DNA of 59,552 nt from Candidatus Altiarchaeota archaeon (GTDB lineage Archaea > SpSt-1190). The stretch is from the NCBI GenBank assembly GCA_030590165.1, contig JAUUZA010000001.1, positions 1 through 59,552 on the forward strand, given 5' to 3'. A program made the translations under genes and the position numbers. Of this stretch, positions 29,333-37,211 are shown piece by piece; positions within the stretch are counted from its first letter, which is position 1; each line of letters starts with the position of its first letter. The notes under the pieces are model-generated. The model did not search any database and was not told where the DNA came from. It was given only the letters and a program-made list of their open reading frames with translations.

Positions 29333-30072
29333 AAGATAATAGAGAACTCCAATCAATATATGTATCTTGGAAACGAGTGATGATTAGACTCAGTCGTTCA
29401 AAAGGTAGATTATTTGGAACTATGTTTCAACCAGTTTTATTCCTTATTACCTTCGGTCTTGGTTTCCGAAAGGTTGGTGGAAATCTTGAATTTGTTTTAC
29501 CTGGTATCCTTGCAATGAATGCCATAATGTCTTCAGCAATGGCAGGAATTAGTGTTATTTGGGACAGGGAATTTGGGTTCTTAAAAGAAATACTAATAGC
29601 TCCAGTTAGTAGGGCTTCTGCTGTTATTGGACGCAGTCTTGGGGCAATAACAACTGCACTAATCCAAGGTATTTGGATTGGTTTTCTTGGAATTTTATTT
29701 GGAGCTAAAATAAATTATTTAGGAATAATACCTGCCTTTGTATTTTTAAGTTTAATATCCGCCCTTTCAGTTGGAATAGGACTTGCCTTCTCAAGTAAAT
29801 TAAGTGATTTTGAAAGTTTTCAAATTATTCATAATTTAATTATTATGCCTTTAATATTTCTATCATCTGCATTCATAGATGTTTCAACTGCACCAAAATG
29901 GTTAGTTTTTATTACAAAAGTGAATCCATTTAGTTATGGAATTAATGGATTACGGTATTCACTAACAGGAACTGGAACAGTGAATGTATTTTTTGATTTT
30001 GGGGTTATTTCACTTTTTGTGATACTCGCTACAATAATTAGTATACGCCTATTTGAAAAAATTGAGGTTTAG
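29329..30072 (+). CDS. ABC-2 type transporter permease
   Basis: 6 predicted TM helices, ABC-2 family layout, translationally coupled to the ATPase. Confidence 0.7.
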   Translation: MKDNRELQSIYVSWKRVMIRLSRSKGRLFGTMFQPVLFLITFGLGFRKVGGNLEFVLPGILAMNAIMSSAMAGISVIWDREFGFLKEILIAPVSRASAVIGRSLGAITTALIQGIWIGFLGILFGAKINYLGIIPAFVFLSLISALSVGIGLAFSSKLSDFESFQIIHNLIIMPLIFLSSAFIDVSTAPKWLVFITKVNPFSYGINGLRYSLTGTGTVNVFFDFGVISLFVILATIISIRLFEKIEV

Positions 30073-30097
30073 TTTTATTTGTTGACCACTTTTCTAA

Positions 30098-30673
30098 TTA
30101 AAGTTCTAAAAGAATTTTCTCAAATTTTCTATATACTAAATACGAAGTAGGTAAGGCTATGATTACTAAAATTGTTAAATATTTTCCGTAAGCATTAATT
30201 AAATGCCAGTTTTCTCCTAAGGTGTAACCACTGAAAGCAAAAACAAAATTCCAGATTATAGTTGCAATTGAATTTAGGAAAATAAATTTTCTTAATGGAA
30301 ATTTTGCTATTGCTGCAGGGAGAGGAATAAACATTCTAAGTGCTGGGATTAATCTTCCAAAAAATACGGCTTTGTCTCCAAATTTCTTGAAGAAATTTTT
30401 TGACATTGTAATTTGTTTTTCTATGAAACTTATTTTGTGAATAAATTTTATTTTTGAGCCCCATAAAAATATTATTAATGAGCCTATGAAATTTAGGATA
30501 CTTCCCCAGAAAGCAACAGTAAGCCAAGAGAAATATCCTCGTGAGGCTAAGAAACCTCCAAAAGGTACGACTATGAAACTTGGGATGGGAATCATCATTC
30601 CTTCAAGAAGAATTGATAAAAGGACGGCAAATAGACCATATTGCTCAAGAATTGGAATAATAAATTCAAACAC
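30098..30673 (-). CDS. DedA/SNARE-associated family membrane protein
   Basis: 191 aa polytopic. The LLEGMMIPIPSFIVVPFGGFLA pattern resembles the DedA core motif. Confidence 0.5.
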   Translation of the reverse strand: MFEFIIPILEQYGLFAVLLSILLEGMMIPIPSFIVVPFGGFLASRGYFSWLTVAFWGSILNFIGSLIIFLWGSKIKFIHKISFIEKQITMSKNFFKKFGDKAVFFGRLIPALRMFIPLPAAIAKFPLRKFIFLNSIATIIWNFVFAFSGYTLGENWHLINAYGKYLTILVIIALPTSYLVYRKFEKILLEL

Positions 30674-30799
30674 TATAAACTTTACAAAATCAAGTATAAA
30701 AGAATTTATTAAAGAAACACTAAAAGTATAAACTTAAACCTAAGCTTCAATTAAATTAAAAAACAATTATTCTCCTTCCAAGACAGTCTTAATATATTA

Positions 30800-31357
30800 T
30801 CAAATATACATAGTTGATTTTTTCCTAGACGTATCTAATTTTCCTTCAACATCTTTCTTATCAACTTCATAAGCCATTATTGTTTTTGCAAGATTAATAT
30901 TATCTGACGGTACGACCCTAAAATGATTTTTATCTGAAAAAAAGTAAGCCAAATCCTCTTCAATAACTGAAGCCAAACAATCTGCATACCCACTTAAATT
31001 CTCAAAATACTCCTTTACTTTGTCAACATAAATTCCAAGTTCATTAATAGGTTCTTCAGCTTTCATAAATGCCTCAGTTGATCGTTTGAGCAAGATAAGT
31101 GTTGCTCGTAGGTCTTGATAAATATTATTTCCAAACAATAATTCACCTTCTTTAAATTCAAGGAATTTTGATACTTCACTTTCATATATTGAAGATTCCA
31201 TGCGCTTCAAATCTTCTGCTTGTTGATAAAGTCCTTTTTCAATTAACTCTAATTTTTCAAACAATTCTTCATCTGTAACCTCAAAAAAAGTCTCAAAAAT
31301 TTTTCCAGTTCCATCCCGAACCTCTATTTTTCTTCTCTCTTTTGGTATTTTAACCAT
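30800..31357 (-). CDS. hypothetical acidic helical protein, paralog A of a tandem pair
   Basis: 185 aa, about 55% identical to the upstream paralog. Shares an identical LYQQAEDLKRMESSIYESE block and an identical KSTMYI C-terminus. Confidence 0.55.
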   Translation of the reverse strand: MVKIPKERRKIEVRDGTGKIFETFFEVTDEELFEKLELIEKGLYQQAEDLKRMESSIYESEVSKFLEFKEGELLFGNNIYQDLRATLILLKRSTEAFMKAEEPINELGIYVDKVKEYFENLSGYADCLASVIEEDLAYFFSDKNHFRVVPSDNINLAKTIMAYEVDKKDVEGKLDTSRKKSTMYI

Positions 31358-31490
31358 AAGTTCCCACCCATCTCATATGTATTTCTTTTAAAATATTTGT
31401 TTTACTTTCCAATTAAATCAGTTTAAACCAATCTAAAACAGGCATATATAATTAATAAAAATGTTGAAATTTAAATCTAAATTAATATTT

Positions 31491-32048
31491 TCAAATATAC
31501 ATAGTTGATTTTTCCTTAGTGAGCTTTTTTTTATCCTCAAGAATTCCCTTCTCCACTTCAAGCTCCATTACTATTTTTGCCATACTAATACTGTTTGAAG
31601 GTATGGCTCTTAACTGATTTTTATCTGAAATAAAATAAGACATTCCTTCTTCAACAGTTGCTCCCAAATTAAGTGTATACTCATTTAACTTCTTAAAATA
31701 CTTCATTACGTCCTCAATATAAATTCCAAATTCATCAATTGGTTCTTCAGCTTTTAGAAATGCTTCTGTTGCTCGTTTGAATAAATTAAGTGTTGCCTGT
31801 TGGTCTTGATAAACATCATTTCCAGACAATAAATCTTCTTCATTAAATTCAAGAAATTTTGATGCTTCACTTTCATATATTGACGATTCCATGCGTTTCA
31901 AATCTTCTGCTTGTTGATAAAGTTCTTTTTCAACTAACTTTAATCTTTCAGAAAACTCTTCACCTAAAACTTCTGAATAAACTTCAACAAGTTCTCCATC
32001 GTCGTTATGAATTTCAATTTTTTGTTTTTCTTTTAATTTTTTAACCAT
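31491..32048 (-). CDS. hypothetical acidic helical protein, paralog B of a tandem pair
   Basis: 185 aa. Same promoter/5'UTR sequence (TATTTTAAAAGAAATA...) and same 3' end as paralog A. Confidence 0.55.
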   Translation of the reverse strand: MVKKLKEKQKIEIHNDDGELVEVYSEVLGEEFSERLKLVEKELYQQAEDLKRMESSIYESEASKFLEFNEEDLLSGNDVYQDQQATLNLFKRATEAFLKAEEPIDEFGIYIEDVMKYFKKLNEYTLNLGATVEEGMSYFISDKNQLRAIPSNSISMAKIVMELEVEKGILEDKKKLTKEKSTMYI

Positions 32049-32144
32049 AAGCTCTCACTCATACTATGTCTATTTCTTTTAAAATATTTGTTTTACTTTT
32101 TAATTAACAGCCTTAACTAAGATTTTTGTAATTTTTTTAAGTTC

Positions 32145-32924
32145 TTATCTGAAACCAAGAGACGCATATCCAACAACTGAGGAATTATCTCCAGTTATGT
32201 CTCCTGAAGTATAATAGGTCAAAAGGTCTGATTCCTTTCCTTTCATCGCATACATTAAAGTTGCAATAGTAAAAGCCCCACAGATTGAAGTTTGATTTTT
32301 TTTCACAGTATCTAAAAAATCTTTAGGAGAACTTTTCATTATTTTTTCTAGTAAGAGTGAATCATCTTTCACAGCTTTTTGTCTCGGGACAAAATGACTA
32401 AAATCACTTGTTGCAATTATTGGGACATTCAAGAATCTCAAAGCCTAGCCAACTTCTTTCAATCTCTTGTGTGAAACTTGTGGAATTGTAATCGGTAAAA
32501 AACTAAATTTTTTTTGAGTGAATTGTAAGAAGGGAAGTTGAACTTCAATGCTATGTTCTTTCGGACTATCTACAATTGGCAAACCAAGAAAATCTAATTG
32601 TTCACTAAGTTCTGTTTCAACTTCAACCATACCAAGAGGAGTTTCCCATTTAGAATAAGGATGAAGACTAATATCATTTGTATTCCCATAATGGTCATTA
32701 CCCAAAATTACAAGATGATTTGTTTTTTTGAGTGATTTAAAGAAAGAAGCAGCAGCAAGGCCAGAATATACCAAACCAGCATGGGGAACAATTCCTCCAA
32801 TATAATTACGCCCACCTTCAACTTTTGAAAATAATTCACCCAAGAGTGCGAGTAAATCCTTCTTATCTTGAGGATAAAAACCAGTGGCGTATGAAGGTCT
32901 AATCATAGAATGAGTAAAAGTCAA
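32145..32924 (-). pseudogene. Memo-like (AmmeMemoRadiSam system protein B family) gene interrupted by an in-frame TAG
   Basis: Upstream part MIRPSYATGFYP...VPHAGLVYSG and downstream part ...IATSDFSHF... are in the same frame, separated only by TAG (plus-strand CTA at 32445-32447). The track splits it into a 159-aa and a 98-aa ORF. Confidence 0.6.
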
Positions 32925-32967
32925 ACTAGAAATGAATATCTAAAAACTTACAAGACAACAAACTTAT

Positions 32968-33000
32968 GTTAAAGAATAAAAAATAATCCAGCAAAGCTGG
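32968..33000 (-). terminator. hairpin CCAGCTTTGCTGG plus T-run downstream of rps2
   Basis: Minus strand reads CCAGCTTTGCTGGATTATTTTTTATTC. Nearly the same hairpin as the S-layer gene terminator. Confidence 0.5.
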
Positions 33001-33028: not shown

Positions 33029-33634
33029 TTATTCCTGCTGTTCCTTTGGCATTTCCCCAATGAAATCTTCCAAAGGCGCTTCGAGGTCCTCATCTGCCTT
33101 CAAATCTCCCCTCTCAAAAAGGGTTTGATTTGTCAAAACATAATAAACCGCCGCAAGTGACCTTCGACCCTTATTATTACAAGGAATAACCAAATCAACA
33201 TTCTCAATAGTATTATTAGTTGAAGCTAAACAAATTACAGGAATACCTGAAGAAATTGCCTCACTAATTGGCTGTCTATCCCCATAAGGGTCACAAGCAA
33301 TCAAGAGTTTAGGTTCAATAAAGTATTCCAAATTTGGATTAGTCATAGTTCCAGGCATAAATCTTCCAAGGAATCTAGTAGCTCCAGTAATCTTCGAAAA
33401 CATTTCTGCTGGCTTTTGACCTTGTTCTTTCGAAGCCACAACCATAACATCTTCAATTGGATACTGATTAATGAATTTAGCAACCGTCTTAATTCTTTCA
33501 AGTGTTTCTTGAACATTTAAGACAGCCAATCCATCCTCACGAACCTTGAAAACAAATTTTTTCATAGATTCTACTTTTCTTTGAGTTCCAATATGAACCC
33601 CATTTTTAACCAATATTTGTCTTGCATTCTTCAT
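33029..33634 (-). CDS. rps2: 30S ribosomal protein S2 (uS2)
   Basis: ...GVHIGTQRK...FINQYPIEDVMVV...RFLGRFMPGTMTNP... is the standard uS2 layout. 201 aa. Confidence 0.85.
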   Translation of the reverse strand: MKNARQILVKNGVHIGTQRKVESMKKFVFKVREDGLAVLNVQETLERIKTVAKFINQYPIEDVMVVASKEQGQKPAEMFSKITGATRFLGRFMPGTMTNPNLEYFIEPKLLIACDPYGDRQPISEAISSGIPVICLASTNNTIENVDLVIPCNNKGRRSLAAVYYVLTNQTLFERGDLKADEDLEAPLEDFIGEMPKEQQE

Positions 33635-33644
33635 TATTCCACCT

Positions 33645-34421
33645 TTACTTTTTCTTAAGATACTTCAATAGCTTCTTGCTATGCTTTATAGCCCTTTCTA
33701 GAATGTCATCAAGTTCTTTATCAGATATACCTAAGTCTCCACCCATCTGAAGAGCAACAATATTGCCATCTTTAATTCCAACAGCGAGTCTTGAAACACT
33801 AGCATCTTCTTCATCCTTAGTTGGGTCAACAATAATTTTGTCTCCAACTTTCAAAAAGGTAGAAGCAACTGCTAAACCATTCACTGGAAGAGATTCTTTC
33901 AAATCAGTTCTAATGACTTCGTCATTTTCAAGTCTTGGTAATTTGGCAGTCATAAGAGCAGCCATTGCACCTAAAGTTGCCGCATCAATTAAGTTTCCGT
34001 CGAAGTTCATAGTATAAACATCCACAAAAACCATCCAGACTTTTTCACCAGCTTCAATACAAAGTTTTGAAACCTCAATTATTTTTCCCTCTCTTATAGT
34101 TCTATCAATTACACGAGAGATTTCAATTGCTTTTTCACGTGGTGGTCCTGATTCAAATTCACTACAGCTCATAGGCGATAATTCTAATCCAGTCATCAAA
34201 ACTCCTTTGTCGGGACTATCTGGATATGGTTTACCCAAATTCACTTTTACACCAACAAGAACTTCTGTTTTTCCGAGTTTAACTCTTGCTGAACCTTCAG
34301 CTTTTGAAATTACATTAGTTTCAATTTCAATGTCCCGGAATTCATCAATTTTTCGGCCATCTAATCTCTTGCCGTCCTTTAATAATTCCAATATATTTTT
34401 CAAAGTAACATTGTTCATCAT
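33645..34421 (-). CDS. rrp42: exosome complex component Rrp42 (RNase PH-like, non-catalytic)
   Basis: 258 aa RNase PH fold. Position after Rrp41 in the conserved superoperon order. Confidence 0.75.
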   Translation of the reverse strand: MMNNVTLKNILELLKDGKRLDGRKIDEFRDIEIETNVISKAEGSARVKLGKTEVLVGVKVNLGKPYPDSPDKGVLMTGLELSPMSCSEFESGPPREKAIEISRVIDRTIREGKIIEVSKLCIEAGEKVWMVFVDVYTMNFDGNLIDAATLGAMAALMTAKLPRLENDEVIRTDLKESLPVNGLAVASTFLKVGDKIIVDPTKDEEDASVSRLAVGIKDGNIVALQMGGDLGISDKELDDILERAIKHSKKLLKYLKKK

Positions 34422-35161
34422 TTTGACACCTCAAATTTATCTTTAAGAGCCTTGATTTGAGCCTTGTAAACAACATCAATTGCCTTGTCTGCCATCTTCT
34501 TACCCTTATCAAACTCTTCTTTCGTCATATCTCCATCCATTTGAAGAAGTACTACATCTCCAGTTGCTGGAGCTCTTGCATAAGCAACATCAGCCATACC
34601 CCACTGGTCTTCTGGTTTGTCTACATCAATTGCGACATGTCCAACTCCTTTTTCATCATAAATCTTACCAAAGGTAACACCTACAACTAAACTTCGCATT
34701 GGGATTCCAGCAGCAGCAAGTGCTAATGAAGCCGCATTTATTCCAGTAATACGTGTACTGGCATCAGCTTGAGTAACAGAAACAAACAAATCAATTACTG
34801 TCCTTGGGAATTTCTCCAAAAAGACAACACTCCTAAATGCTTCTGCTGTTACTTTACTAATTTCAATTTCACGTCGTCCAGGTCCTGGGCGTTTTCTATC
34901 CTCAACTGAGAAAGAAAACATGTCATACTTTGCACGCAGTAATGCCTTATCAGGAAGAGCAAGTCTTCTTGGGTGCATTACTCTAGGTCCGTGAACTGCT
35001 GCAGTTACCTTTGTTTTACCAAAGATTACTTCAGCTGAACCTTGTGCATTTGGTACTACGTCCATTTTAATTTTCATTTTTCTGTAATCGTCCAAATTTC
35101 TTCCATCAAGTCGTTTACTATTTTTATACAAATATTTTGGTTTAGTTTCCATCTTCTTCAC
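34418..35161 (-). CDS. rrp41: exosome complex exonuclease Rrp41 (RNase PH)
   Basis: ...GRNLDDYRKMKIKMDVVPNAQGSAEVIFGKTKVTAAVHGP..., 247 aa. ATGA-type overlap with Rrp42. Confidence 0.8.
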   Translation of the reverse strand: MKKMETKPKYLYKNSKRLDGRNLDDYRKMKIKMDVVPNAQGSAEVIFGKTKVTAAVHGPRVMHPRRLALPDKALLRAKYDMFSFSVEDRKRPGPGRREIEISKVTAEAFRSVVFLEKFPRTVIDLFVSVTQADASTRITGINAASLALAAAGIPMRSLVVGVTFGKIYDEKGVGHVAIDVDKPEDQWGMADVAYARAPATGDVVLLQMDGDMTKEEFDKGKKMADKAIDVVYKAQIKALKDKFEVSK

Positions 35162-35816
35162 CCTCCAAATATTCTTTTATTGAATCAGTTAGTCCTGAAA
35201 GATGTGCATTAGCTTCAATTTTTCTTATTACTTTTTCAGCTAATTCAACATTTCCTCCACTTATTGAAATTTTTCCATTTTGACCAACAAAAATTCTACT
35301 TCCAGTCTTTTCTTTTATCATTTTCACCATACTGGCATTTTTTCCAATAATTCTTGGAATTCTTGAAGGCTCAACATCTAAAAGTTTTCCTTCAGTAATT
35401 TTTCTAAGTCCAGGGCCACGAGCAGTGACAAGCACACTCATATTTTCCTCAACATTTTTTATTTTACAAATCACTACATCCCCAATTGCAAAAACTTTTC
35501 CAAGTTTATCTTTTCTGGGATCCAAAAATCTTTCAGAAGCATCACCAAGCATCATAGTCGCTTCATATGGCGAATTGATGTTGACACTCCAATTATTGTA
35601 TCTAACTTCTTTGATGACTCCAATTACGGGGTCATCCCTTTTTGGCATATATACACCAGATAGCGGAATTACTTTTACAAGTCTATCCCTAATATCTGAT
35701 AGTCCTAACACACTAGCTCTAATTTCTGAGCCACTTCTATGTGTTCCATCTCCTGGGAGATAATCCATGCCTTCGATTATACTTTCTCCTGGAGTTACTA
35801 TTTTTCTATTTTCCAT
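35142..35816 (-). CDS. rrp4: exosome RNA-binding subunit Rrp4 (S1 + KH)
   Basis: N-terminal domain, S1 (VIGVIKEVRYNNWSVNI) and KH modules. 224 aa. Confidence 0.75.
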   Translation of the reverse strand: MENRKIVTPGESIIEGMDYLPGDGTHRSGSEIRASVLGLSDIRDRLVKVIPLSGVYMPKRDDPVIGVIKEVRYNNWSVNINSPYEATMMLGDASERFLDPRKDKLGKVFAIGDVVICKIKNVEENMSVLVTARGPGLRKITEGKLLDVEPSRIPRIIGKNASMVKMIKEKTGSRIFVGQNGKISISGGNVELAEKVIRKIEANAHLSGLTDSIKEYLEGEEDGN

Positions 35817-35818
35817 TT

Positions 35819-36508
35819 TTATTCCTCCTTTATCATTACTTCGCCCTTAGTGGCGTCTCCAAGTTCAGTCATTATATCGACCTTTCTTCCACTTGGAATT
35901 TCTATTGTTGCTTGAAGTGAACCATTGGCAAGCCAACTTTCCTTCAAGACTTTTCCTAAACTTTTCACTTTCCCATATAGAGAAGGTGCAAATTTTGCAG
36001 GAACTACTATTCTTAATTTTGTAGTCCCAAACTTAAGTGGCAAAACCAACCTAAGTTCTTTTACTATTCCATTTAATTGTTCAGAAGCTGAGCTTAATTC
36101 AATTTTAACCTTTGCTTCATTAAAAGCCCAAAGAATTCGGTCACGTGTATGTGGTAAATTATTTCTTGGGTCTACTGAATTTTGAACTACGAGTTCAATC
36201 AATTGTAATTTCACTTTTTCTACCATTTTCTTTTTTTGTTCAGTAGTTGGATGAAATTTTCCTTTCTTCAATATTTCTTTAATAATTACTTCCAATTCAA
36301 GAGTTCCAAATGCCTTTTGTAAATCACTTTCACTGGCCGTGTCTGCTCGGTTTGCATTTTTAAAAATTTCAAAAACAGCAAGAGATTCTCGAAGCCTAAT
36401 TTCTTTACCTTCCCTAAATGCTAAAACTGCATCAGGGTCAGCTAAAATCTCAAAATGAATCCCATTCTTATCTATACTAACATTAGACGCATCTTCAATC
36501 TTTACCAT
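35819..36508 (-). CDS. sdo1: SBDS family ribosome maturation protein (Sdo1)
   Basis: 229 aa with an N-terminal FYSH-like domain. Position between psmA and rrp4 as in the archaeal exosome superoperon. Confidence 0.65.
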   Translation of the reverse strand: MVKIEDASNVSIDKNGIHFEILADPDAVLAFREGKEIRLRESLAVFEIFKNANRADTASESDLQKAFGTLELEVIIKEILKKGKFHPTTEQKKKMVEKVKLQLIELVVQNSVDPRNNLPHTRDRILWAFNEAKVKIELSSASEQLNGIVKELRLVLPLKFGTTKLRIVVPAKFAPSLYGKVKSLGKVLKESWLANGSLQATIEIPSGRKVDIMTELGDATKGEVMIKEE

Positions 36509-37211
36509 TTACCATCGCCGCCAATTCCTCACCAACAAGTTTATGGAAACCGTCTTTAGTAATTTGAGTAGCTTCAACGCGCTTCGTTGAGAATTTATCT
36601 TTGAGGACACCCTTCAAAGCTTTCATTCCCAAAGCAAAAGCTTTGTCTAAATTCATATTTGGTAAATATTCTTTATCTAAAATTCTCATTACTTCAACTC
36701 GACCCTCACCTACTGCAGTTGCAGCCCATTCGGTTGGTGTTCCACTTGGGTCAATTTCATAAATTCGTGGTTCAGTATCATAACCAGTTAAGAGTACAGT
36801 TACTCCAAAAGGTCTTATCCCTCCGTATTGGGTAAAAATTTGCATATAACTACTCAAATCGTAAACCATCTGTTTCATTGTTGCTGGTTCGTCAAATGAT
36901 AATCTATGACGTTGTGCTTGGAGTCTAGCTTGTTCAATTAATTTTCTTCCATCTGCAACCAATCCAATGGTGGCTGCTCCAATATGATCATCAATTTCAT
37001 ATAATTTTTCTATGCTTCGTGCCATAATTAAACTATGAAGAACTTTTTTATCTGCAATCATTGCAATTCCATTTTTTGCTTTGATTGCTATGACTGTTGC
37101 CCCTCTCTTTACTGCTTCCATAGCATATTGAACCTGAAATAACCTCCCATCAGGACTAAATACTGTAACTCCGCGGTCATACCCCATTCCATCTGGCGCC
37201 ATAATTTGCAT
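36495..37211 (-). CDS. psmA: proteasome subunit alpha
   Basis: ...GYDRGVTVFSPDGRLFQVQYAMEAVKRGATVIAIK..., 238 aa. Confidence 0.9.
   Translation of the reverse strand: MQIMAPDGMGYDRGVTVFSPDGRLFQVQYAMEAVKRGATVIAIKAKNGIAMIADKKVLHSLIMARSIEKLYEIDDHIGAATIGLVADGRKLIEQARLQAQRHRLSFDEPATMKQMVYDLSSYMQIFTQYGGIRPFGVTVLLTGYDTEPRIYEIDPSGTPTEWAATAVGEGRVEVMRILDKEYLPNMNLDKAFALGMKALKGVLKDKFSTKRVEATQITKDGFHKLVGEELAAMVNGKD

Follow-up and report, generated by a model that had tools for sequence, protein, structure and literature searches.

Patchy nucleotide identity in a tandem pair of paralogs from a rare, virus-linked archaeal protein family

The window analysed here is the whole 59,552-nucleotide stretch of contig JAUUZA010000001.1 (assembly GCA_030590165.1) from Candidatus Altiarchaeota archaeon, and the subject of this work is a pair of adjacent paralogous genes on its minus strand, A (31491-32048) and B (30800-31357), whose nucleotide sequences are nearly identical in some segments and strongly diverged in others. 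Each gene is an open reading frame (ORF) of 185 amino acids. The two products share 56% identity and the C-terminus KSTMYI, and protein A is acidic (isoelectric point 4.7) and mostly helical. These coordinates and identity agree with the first-pass annotation, made from the DNA alone, which had reported an adjacent minus-strand pair of 185-aa genes that are about 55% identical. An AlphaFold2 model of A, built on four sequences (mean predicted local distance difference test score, pLDDT, 73), contains two beta-hairpins (residues 10-27 and 136-150) and four long helices, and ends in a tail (residues 174-185; pLDDT <50) that, judging from the model, is probably flexible.

Comparison of the window with itself by blastn showed that the repeated unit is larger than the genes. 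It is a 623-nt direct repeat without gaps, with a period of 691 nt, 141 mismatches and 77.4% identity. Each copy, on the minus strand, comprises the putative promoter, the gene and 6 nt beyond it: 31485-32107 for the copy containing A and 30794-31416 for the copy containing B. The two units are separated by a unique 68-nt spacer (31417-31484, with a T5 run at 31457-31461) without a significant match in the sequence that precedes A or the one that follows B, and neither tblastn nor blastn revealed further copies of A or B in the window. A Logan contig (L001, SRR18920792) is 99.95% identical to positions 30056-32107. Its first 61 nt (1-61) are unrelated to positions 32108-32168 of the window, which form the 3' end of the neighbouring Memo gene, and the break coincides exactly with the edge of the duplicated unit. 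The alternative 5' end has no significant homology to the flanks of the units; the junction may have arisen in assembly, or it may be a variant within the population that differs in copy number or in context.

Three segments of the repeat stand out by their identity. The first is a 29-nt patch, AAAGTAAAACAAATATTTTAAAAGAAATA, duplicated exactly upstream of A (32071-32099) and of B (31380-31408), both on the minus strand, and present in the window only at these two positions even when three mismatches are allowed. The second lies inside the ORF at nucleotides 126-184 of the coding sequence (31865-31923 in A, 31174-31232 in B) and contains 2 mismatches in 59 nt. It falls largely within codons 43-68 (LYQQAEDLKRMESSIYESEASKFLEF; 31845-31922 in A and 31154-31231 in B), which occupy the model helices H29-58 and H61-65 and are identical between A and B at 25 of 26 amino acids; the nucleotide differences there are three synonymous and one non-synonymous. 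The third comprises the final 23 nt of the two genes (31491-31513 in A, 30800-30822 in B), which are identical, include the TGA stop codon and encode K-S-T-M-Y-I. Permutation of the mismatches along the coding sequence, with the minimum mismatch count as the statistic, showed that they are clustered (P=0.0004 for a 100-nt window, P=0.007 for a 60-nt window) and that a segment of contiguous nucleotide identity significantly above the gene background is present. Taken alone, the longest stretch without a mismatch (27 nt) does not reach significance (P=0.08, permutation). Divergence of the two aligned copies is thus not uniform, and the mosaic identity described by the first-pass annotation, with its three patches located as claimed, exceeds chance.

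Within the 59-nt upstream region, 10 mismatches fall in the 30 nt outside the 29-mer, and the 22-nt leader downstream of it has 8 mismatches (36%). Mismatch in this adjoining leader is similar to or higher than the synonymous divergence, so constraint acts on the 29-mer in particular. The patch holds a sequence resembling a B recognition element (BRE), ACAAA, followed by the TATA-like TATTTTAAAA, 34-43 nt before both ATGs. Archaeal core promoters have a purine-rich BRE in front of an A/T-rich TATA-like octamer, some 25-30 nt ahead of the transcription start. Other genes of the window have TATA-like boxes 24-35 nt upstream of their starts; over the upstream regions of about 36 genes, many have TTTATAAA, TATATAAG or TTTAAATA, ending approximately 24-35 nt before the start codon. 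As far as spacing can tell, this implies mostly leaderless or very-short-leader mRNAs in the host, and we infer that the 29-mer is a core promoter of the BRE/TATA type, followed by a leader of only about 10 nt. Because the core promoter is kept in both copies, A and B are probably co-expressed. The T-runs after A (31457-31461) and after B (30758-30763) are possible archaeal terminators. The idea of the first-pass annotation that a nucleic-acid-level feature is under selection therefore applies to the upstream patch, as an ordinary, putative core promoter outside the ORF, and is not supported for the patches within it.

Relatives of A and B are few. Among about 15 billion proteins, the family was found in three other lineages, each single-copy: P0003 (187 aa; loci L018 and L019), P0004 with its near-identical variants (L020, L021 and L039; P0125-P0128), and a type represented by a C-terminal fragment (L037 and L038). 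A word-indexed search of 5.8 billion proteins returned the pair itself only, HMMER, run exhaustively over 1.84 billion representatives, added P0003 only, a profile search added P0004, and a metagenome scan gave P0004-type loci only. No relatives were found on IMG/VR viral contigs, or in phage genomes by tblastn. Searches with A and B against Pfam, NCBIfam, PHROGs, PADLOC and the PDB, the last by sequence and by fold, gave no match, so that the absence of any assignable family or motif, as noted in the first pass, extends to curated families, defence models, structures and folds. The best-conserved motifs within the family are KRAxEAxLxAEEPIxEF and EExMxYFxSDK.

With these outgroups, the age and mode of divergence of the pair could be examined. 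Third positions of A and B mismatch at 24%, compared with approximately 49% between either copy and the outgroup homologs (dS >1.1); the duplication is therefore recent relative to the divergence of the family and is not saturated. Nevertheless, outside the conserved segments the protein difference between A and B is nearly as large as that between either and the outgroups. Polarisation with the outgroups assigned 21 changes to A and 24 to B, and both copies have thus diverged about equally. Mismatches are spread almost evenly over the three codon positions (45/41/44). Counting methods gave dN of 0.25-0.29, dS of 0.21-0.35 and dN/dS of 0.75-1.2, and a pairwise maximum-likelihood codon model (F3x4) gave dN/dS (omega) of 0.63 for the whole gene, which is not significantly different from 1. 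Of eight synonymous glutamate differences, six have GAA in A and GAG in B, a small directional bias, and G+C is slightly higher in B (30.5%) than in A (29.6%).

These whole-gene values average over two very different regimes. Codons 41-70, 91-110 and 180-185 together have an omega of 0.12 (p=0.0015 against 1), compared with 1.16 for the other 129 codons. A partition defined only by outgroup agreement and counted by the Nei-Gojobori method (NG86) gave omega of 0.48 for sites of agreement and 1.19 for sites of disagreement. It is at the first two codon positions that the blocks are uneven: codons 41-70 hold 2 mismatches in 60 such sites, compared with 26/80, 21/60 and 25/78 in the variable blocks. 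The corresponding third-position counts vary far less, with 4/30 compared with 11/40, 7/30 and 13/39. At degenerate codons for identical amino acids, synonymous differences number 3 of 24 in codons 43-68 and 16 of 76 elsewhere (Fisher p=0.55, a test of low power). In a neutral simulation of the variable 129 codons about five stop codons were expected, and the probability of finding none was 0.004; together with the lack of indels, this indicates that both ORFs have been maintained. A strain pair of the single-copy P0004 type differs by 9 changes, all at third positions and none at positions 1 or 2 (omega 0.02). Such strong purifying selection in the single-copy relatives suggests that A and B came to evolve at a near-neutral rate as a result of the duplication.

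We consider it rather probable that the mosaic reflects a recent, lineage-specific tandem duplication followed by mostly near-neutral or diversifying protein change, with conservation of the promoter, the core helix and the tail. Under this reading, the 623-nt unit would have been duplicated in tandem at a period of 691 nt, each copy retaining a promoter and probably a T-run terminator of its own. Since the duplication (dS of about 0.3), some 70% of codons would have changed at a roughly neutral rate (omega of about 1.2) in both copies, while selection would have kept both reading frames at full length. Constraint would have held (i) the core promoter, (ii) the helix of codons 43-68 and the motifs AEEPI and YFxSDKN, and (iii) the hydrophobic-Tyr-X tail. 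Given uniformly low synonymous divergence and very uneven amino-acid constraint, the patches inside the ORF would be accounted for without an embedded element or ongoing conversion.

Several observations weigh against this account. Codons 43-68 are not the best-conserved part of the family: P0003 and P0004 are 40-45% identical there, compared with 95% for A and B. A constraint common to the whole family would thus not lead one to expect this patch, and lineage-specific constraint or conversion is needed. The synonymous-site test has low power, with 3 differences observed where 5 are expected; the partition into conserved and variable codons (omega 0.12 and 1.16) was picked after the data had been seen; and an omega of about 1 fits relaxed and diversifying selection alike. 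Moreover, among the genomes available for dating the duplication, the best match of the nearby exosome gene Rrp42 is only 52% identical.

The same patch is the strongest argument for gene conversion, according to which one or more tracts across the promoter, codons ~36-70 and/or the 3' end re-homogenised the copies after an older duplication, the two to four internal differences having arisen later. We regard this course of events as unlikely, although it retains an appreciable chance of being correct. A and B are 95% identical over the internal tract, where conservation across the family is only average, and by our own estimate identity at 25 of 26 residues, given the outgroup-defined site classes, has a probability of about 3e-6 per window of codons. 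The third-position mismatches, 4 of 30 in codons 41-70 and 40 of 155 elsewhere, deviate in the direction expected from conversion, and tandem direct repeats 691 nt apart are good conversion substrates. However, the comparison restricted to synonymous differences is not significant, and the differences within the tract are mostly synonymous (omega 0.12), while non-synonymous ones dominate outside it. With or without conversion, then, purifying selection acts on the tract. For the 3' patch, the six conserved residues that it encodes, which homologs keep with other codons, are a full explanation, and three short, separate patches would require several independent tracts. Classic concerted evolution by conversion, as in tufA/tufB or rRNA operons, homogenises synonymous and non-synonymous sites alike. 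The pair resembles such systems in being close direct repeats with near-identical segments, but differs in its 23% overall divergence, in the non-synonymous excess outside the patches, and in synonymous sites that are not significantly more alike within the patch than elsewhere. Ongoing gene conversion, as put forward in the first-pass annotation, is thus not supported, since synonymous differences in the patch are not significantly depleted and omega there is 0.12. The identity of codons 43-68 can be read in two ways, as lineage-specific constraint (for instance on a shared partner or an A-B interface) or as a conversion tract of intermediate age.

A reading of A and B as duplicates that have lost their function and are decaying, or as spurious reading frames within tandemly repeated DNA, is very improbable. 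The equal mismatches at the three codon positions and a whole-gene omega indistinguishable from 1 are what neutral drift would produce, but drift would also have placed about five stops in the variable 129 codons, and there are no indels across 623 nt. Decay is further opposed by the low omega of the conserved segments, by the identical promoters, and by homologs in other lineages that are under purifying selection and share their motifs with both copies. Less credible still is a functional nucleic-acid element within the ORF (a structured RNA, an antisense or small RNA, an internal promoter or a protein-binding site) that would keep the internal and 3' patches identical: the one observation in its favour is the identity of the patches itself, whereas Rfam has no match at E<=1 over 30000-33000, folding of the patch RNAs does not depart from that of shuffled sequences (z = +0.66, -0.86, +1.0 and -0.03), the patch motifs do not recur elsewhere in the window, a plus-strand ORF over the A patch (31859-32044) has no listed counterpart of at least 50 aa over B, both synonymous differences of the 59-nt patch are at third codon positions as a peptide constraint would predict, and homologs are just 53-68% identical to it at the nucleotide level. 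On the negative Rfam and folding results an RNA element in the ORF was rejected, and with them, and the lack of recurrence, the strong selection on a nucleic-acid feature inside the ORF suggested earlier finds no support.

The minus-strand gene order around the pair is psmA, SBDS, Rrp4, Rrp41, Rrp42, S2, Memo, A, B and DedA. Positions 33029-37211 (minus strand) hold a classic archaeal proteasome-exosome cluster followed by the gene for ribosomal protein S2, directly upstream of Memo and the pair. On its B side the pair is flanked by a VTT/DedA-domain gene (30098-30673, minus strand). The Memo-family gene (32145-32924, minus strand) is split by an in-frame TAG at 32445-32447 (..KEVG*ALRF..), and both halves match Pfam Memo; the first pass had likewise placed the pair between a DedA-like gene and a Memo pseudogene. 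Recoding of this TAG was rejected, as TAG ends 6 of the 60 long ORFs in the window and is an ordinary stop; a genuine nonsense mutation or an error of sequencing seems to have produced it. The stretch containing the pair is lower in G+C (29%, compared with about 33%). The closest relatives of Rrp42 (~50% identity) are from DPANN-type genomes, and synteny with them is shared only for the exosome genes.

The outgroup members occur in a different setting. All of them lie immediately upstream of a gene for a 317-327-aa metallophosphoesterase with an N-terminal helix-turn-helix (HTH) region, which matches the PHROG 'DNA repair exonuclease' (E=5e-12), and they are preceded by conserved small ORFs. 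Homologs of the metallophosphoesterase were found on 15 IMG/VR contigs and, on a 21.8-kb contig, alongside portal and terminase genes. In addition, the gene that opens the L039 cassette shares 52% identity with one in L040 that adjoins a minor-head-protein-like gene. Gene content thus links the outgroup cassettes to head-tail viruses. The 21.8-kb L042/L043, assigned to Candidatus Aenigmatarchaeota archaeon, encodes a portal protein, a large terminase, an HTH-metallophosphoesterase and a 1229-aa protein with DNA methyltransferase and DNA ligase domains, a gene set that suggests a head-tail virus or provirus placed in the bin of a DPANN archaeon. None of the cassette neighbour genes is present in the window.

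A hidden Markov model search for distant homologs beside metallophosphoesterase genes at 40 other loci was negative. Two proteins of 179-180 aa (L040 3387-3929 and L041 1962-2501) were not accepted as members (hhalign probability 2.6%, E=0.018). They are encoded just downstream of related metallophosphoesterase genes, look alike by eye, have a YF[VL]xD..GLP motif near residue 145 and end in HTYV and HMFI, which resemble the ends of the family; the likeness may be due to very remote kinship or to chance.

In several respects the pair resembles lineage-specific tandem duplicates that diverge under relaxed or diversifying selection, a course common among genes of virus-host conflict and among accessory ORFans of phages and viruses, namely in its head-to-tail duplication including the promoter, an omega of about 1 over most of the protein together with a conserved core, a tiny and patchily distributed family, and other members in virus-like cassettes. 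It differs from them in that A and B match no defence or anti-defence model in PADLOC, their function being uncharacterised, and in that they stand alone between housekeeping genes, with no mobile-element genes nearby in the window. A and B may be small acidic adaptor-like proteins with a common core and a C-terminal docking tail, the remaining surfaces of which have diversified, and this picture would fit a virus-host conflict gene captured in the host chromosome.

The tail is retained throughout the family. The last three residues are MYI in A and B, YYI in P0003, FYT in P0004, and LYS in P0128 and L037/L038 (with longer tails KSTMYI for A and B and VSTYYI, PDFYT and PNLYS in other members). 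All members share the penultimate tyrosine (Y184) and have a hydrophobic residue (M, Y, F or L) at position -3, and the final position is variable. The ~25 residues that precede the tail cannot be aligned across the family and contain indels, and the tail motif is kept in distant homologs through different codons. P0128 is identical to P0126 except for its last seven residues (PVPNLYS compared with PAPDFYT), with the hydrophobic-Tyr-X pattern retained, which suggests, on these two sequences, recombination of tails between virus variants; the tail of P0128 is that of the more divergent L037/L038 type. Among the 60 long ORFs of the window, only A and B have a hydrophobic-Tyr-X end. A reading of the tail as a PIP-box (pattern Qxx[LIVM]xx[FY][FY]) was rejected because its spacing fits P0003 alone.

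A C-terminal hydrophobic-Tyr-X (HbYX) motif docks proteins such as PAN, archaeal Cdc48, PbaB, PI31 and PA200 into the alpha-ring pockets of the 20S proteasome (PMC11475706, PMC12352868). About 0.93% of archaeal proteins end in HbYX, most of them without a known proteasome role (PMC11475706). In the window, psmA (36495-37211, minus strand) encodes a canonical alpha subunit, with matches to Pfam Proteasome and Proteasome_A_N, and lies 4.5 kb upstream of the pair in the same orientation. Its best alignment is with the alpha subunit of PDB 6he5 (E=1.6e-68) and its second best with 6he8 (2.6e-68), over a region that includes YDRGVTVFSPDGRLFQVQYA and SIEKLY. The lysine of SIEKL is presumably the pocket lysine, by T. 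acidophilum numbering. The sequence of 6he8 is that of 6hec, an entry for an archaeal 20S-PAN complex (PMC11475706). A and B thus share with HbYX proteins the hydrophobic-Tyr-X end with its invariant tyrosine, on a tail that the four-sequence model predicts to be disordered, and have the host alpha subunit gene 4.5 kb upstream; unlike the known activators, they have no sequence or fold similarity to any of them, and beyond the tail and the proximity of psmA nothing ties the family to the proteasome. It is a doubtful proposal, drawn from sequence features, that the family comprises unrecognised small acidic proteins of DPANN-type archaeal viruses whose conserved, flexible tail would dock onto the 20S proteasome of the host, in the pockets of its alpha ring, and open or block the gate. 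A captured copy would then have been duplicated downstream of the proteasome-exosome cluster, keeping the docking tail and the core helix while its other surfaces diversified, for example in recruiting or shielding different clients.

The patchy identity of the pair probably has an ordinary cause and should be taken neither for a hidden regulatory element nor for active gene conversion. The evolutionary pattern is ordinary, while the family itself is uncharacterised, very rare and virus-linked. As a clean, small case, the pair shows duplicates that evolve at an omega of about 1 with both ORFs maintained, and the family, with four lineages among ~15 billion proteins, ties a DPANN-type archaeal chromosome to head-tail virus cassettes. 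If the tail does bind the proteasome, this would be the first hint of small HbYX proteins being used by archaeal viruses, or by their hosts, to manipulate proteolysis.

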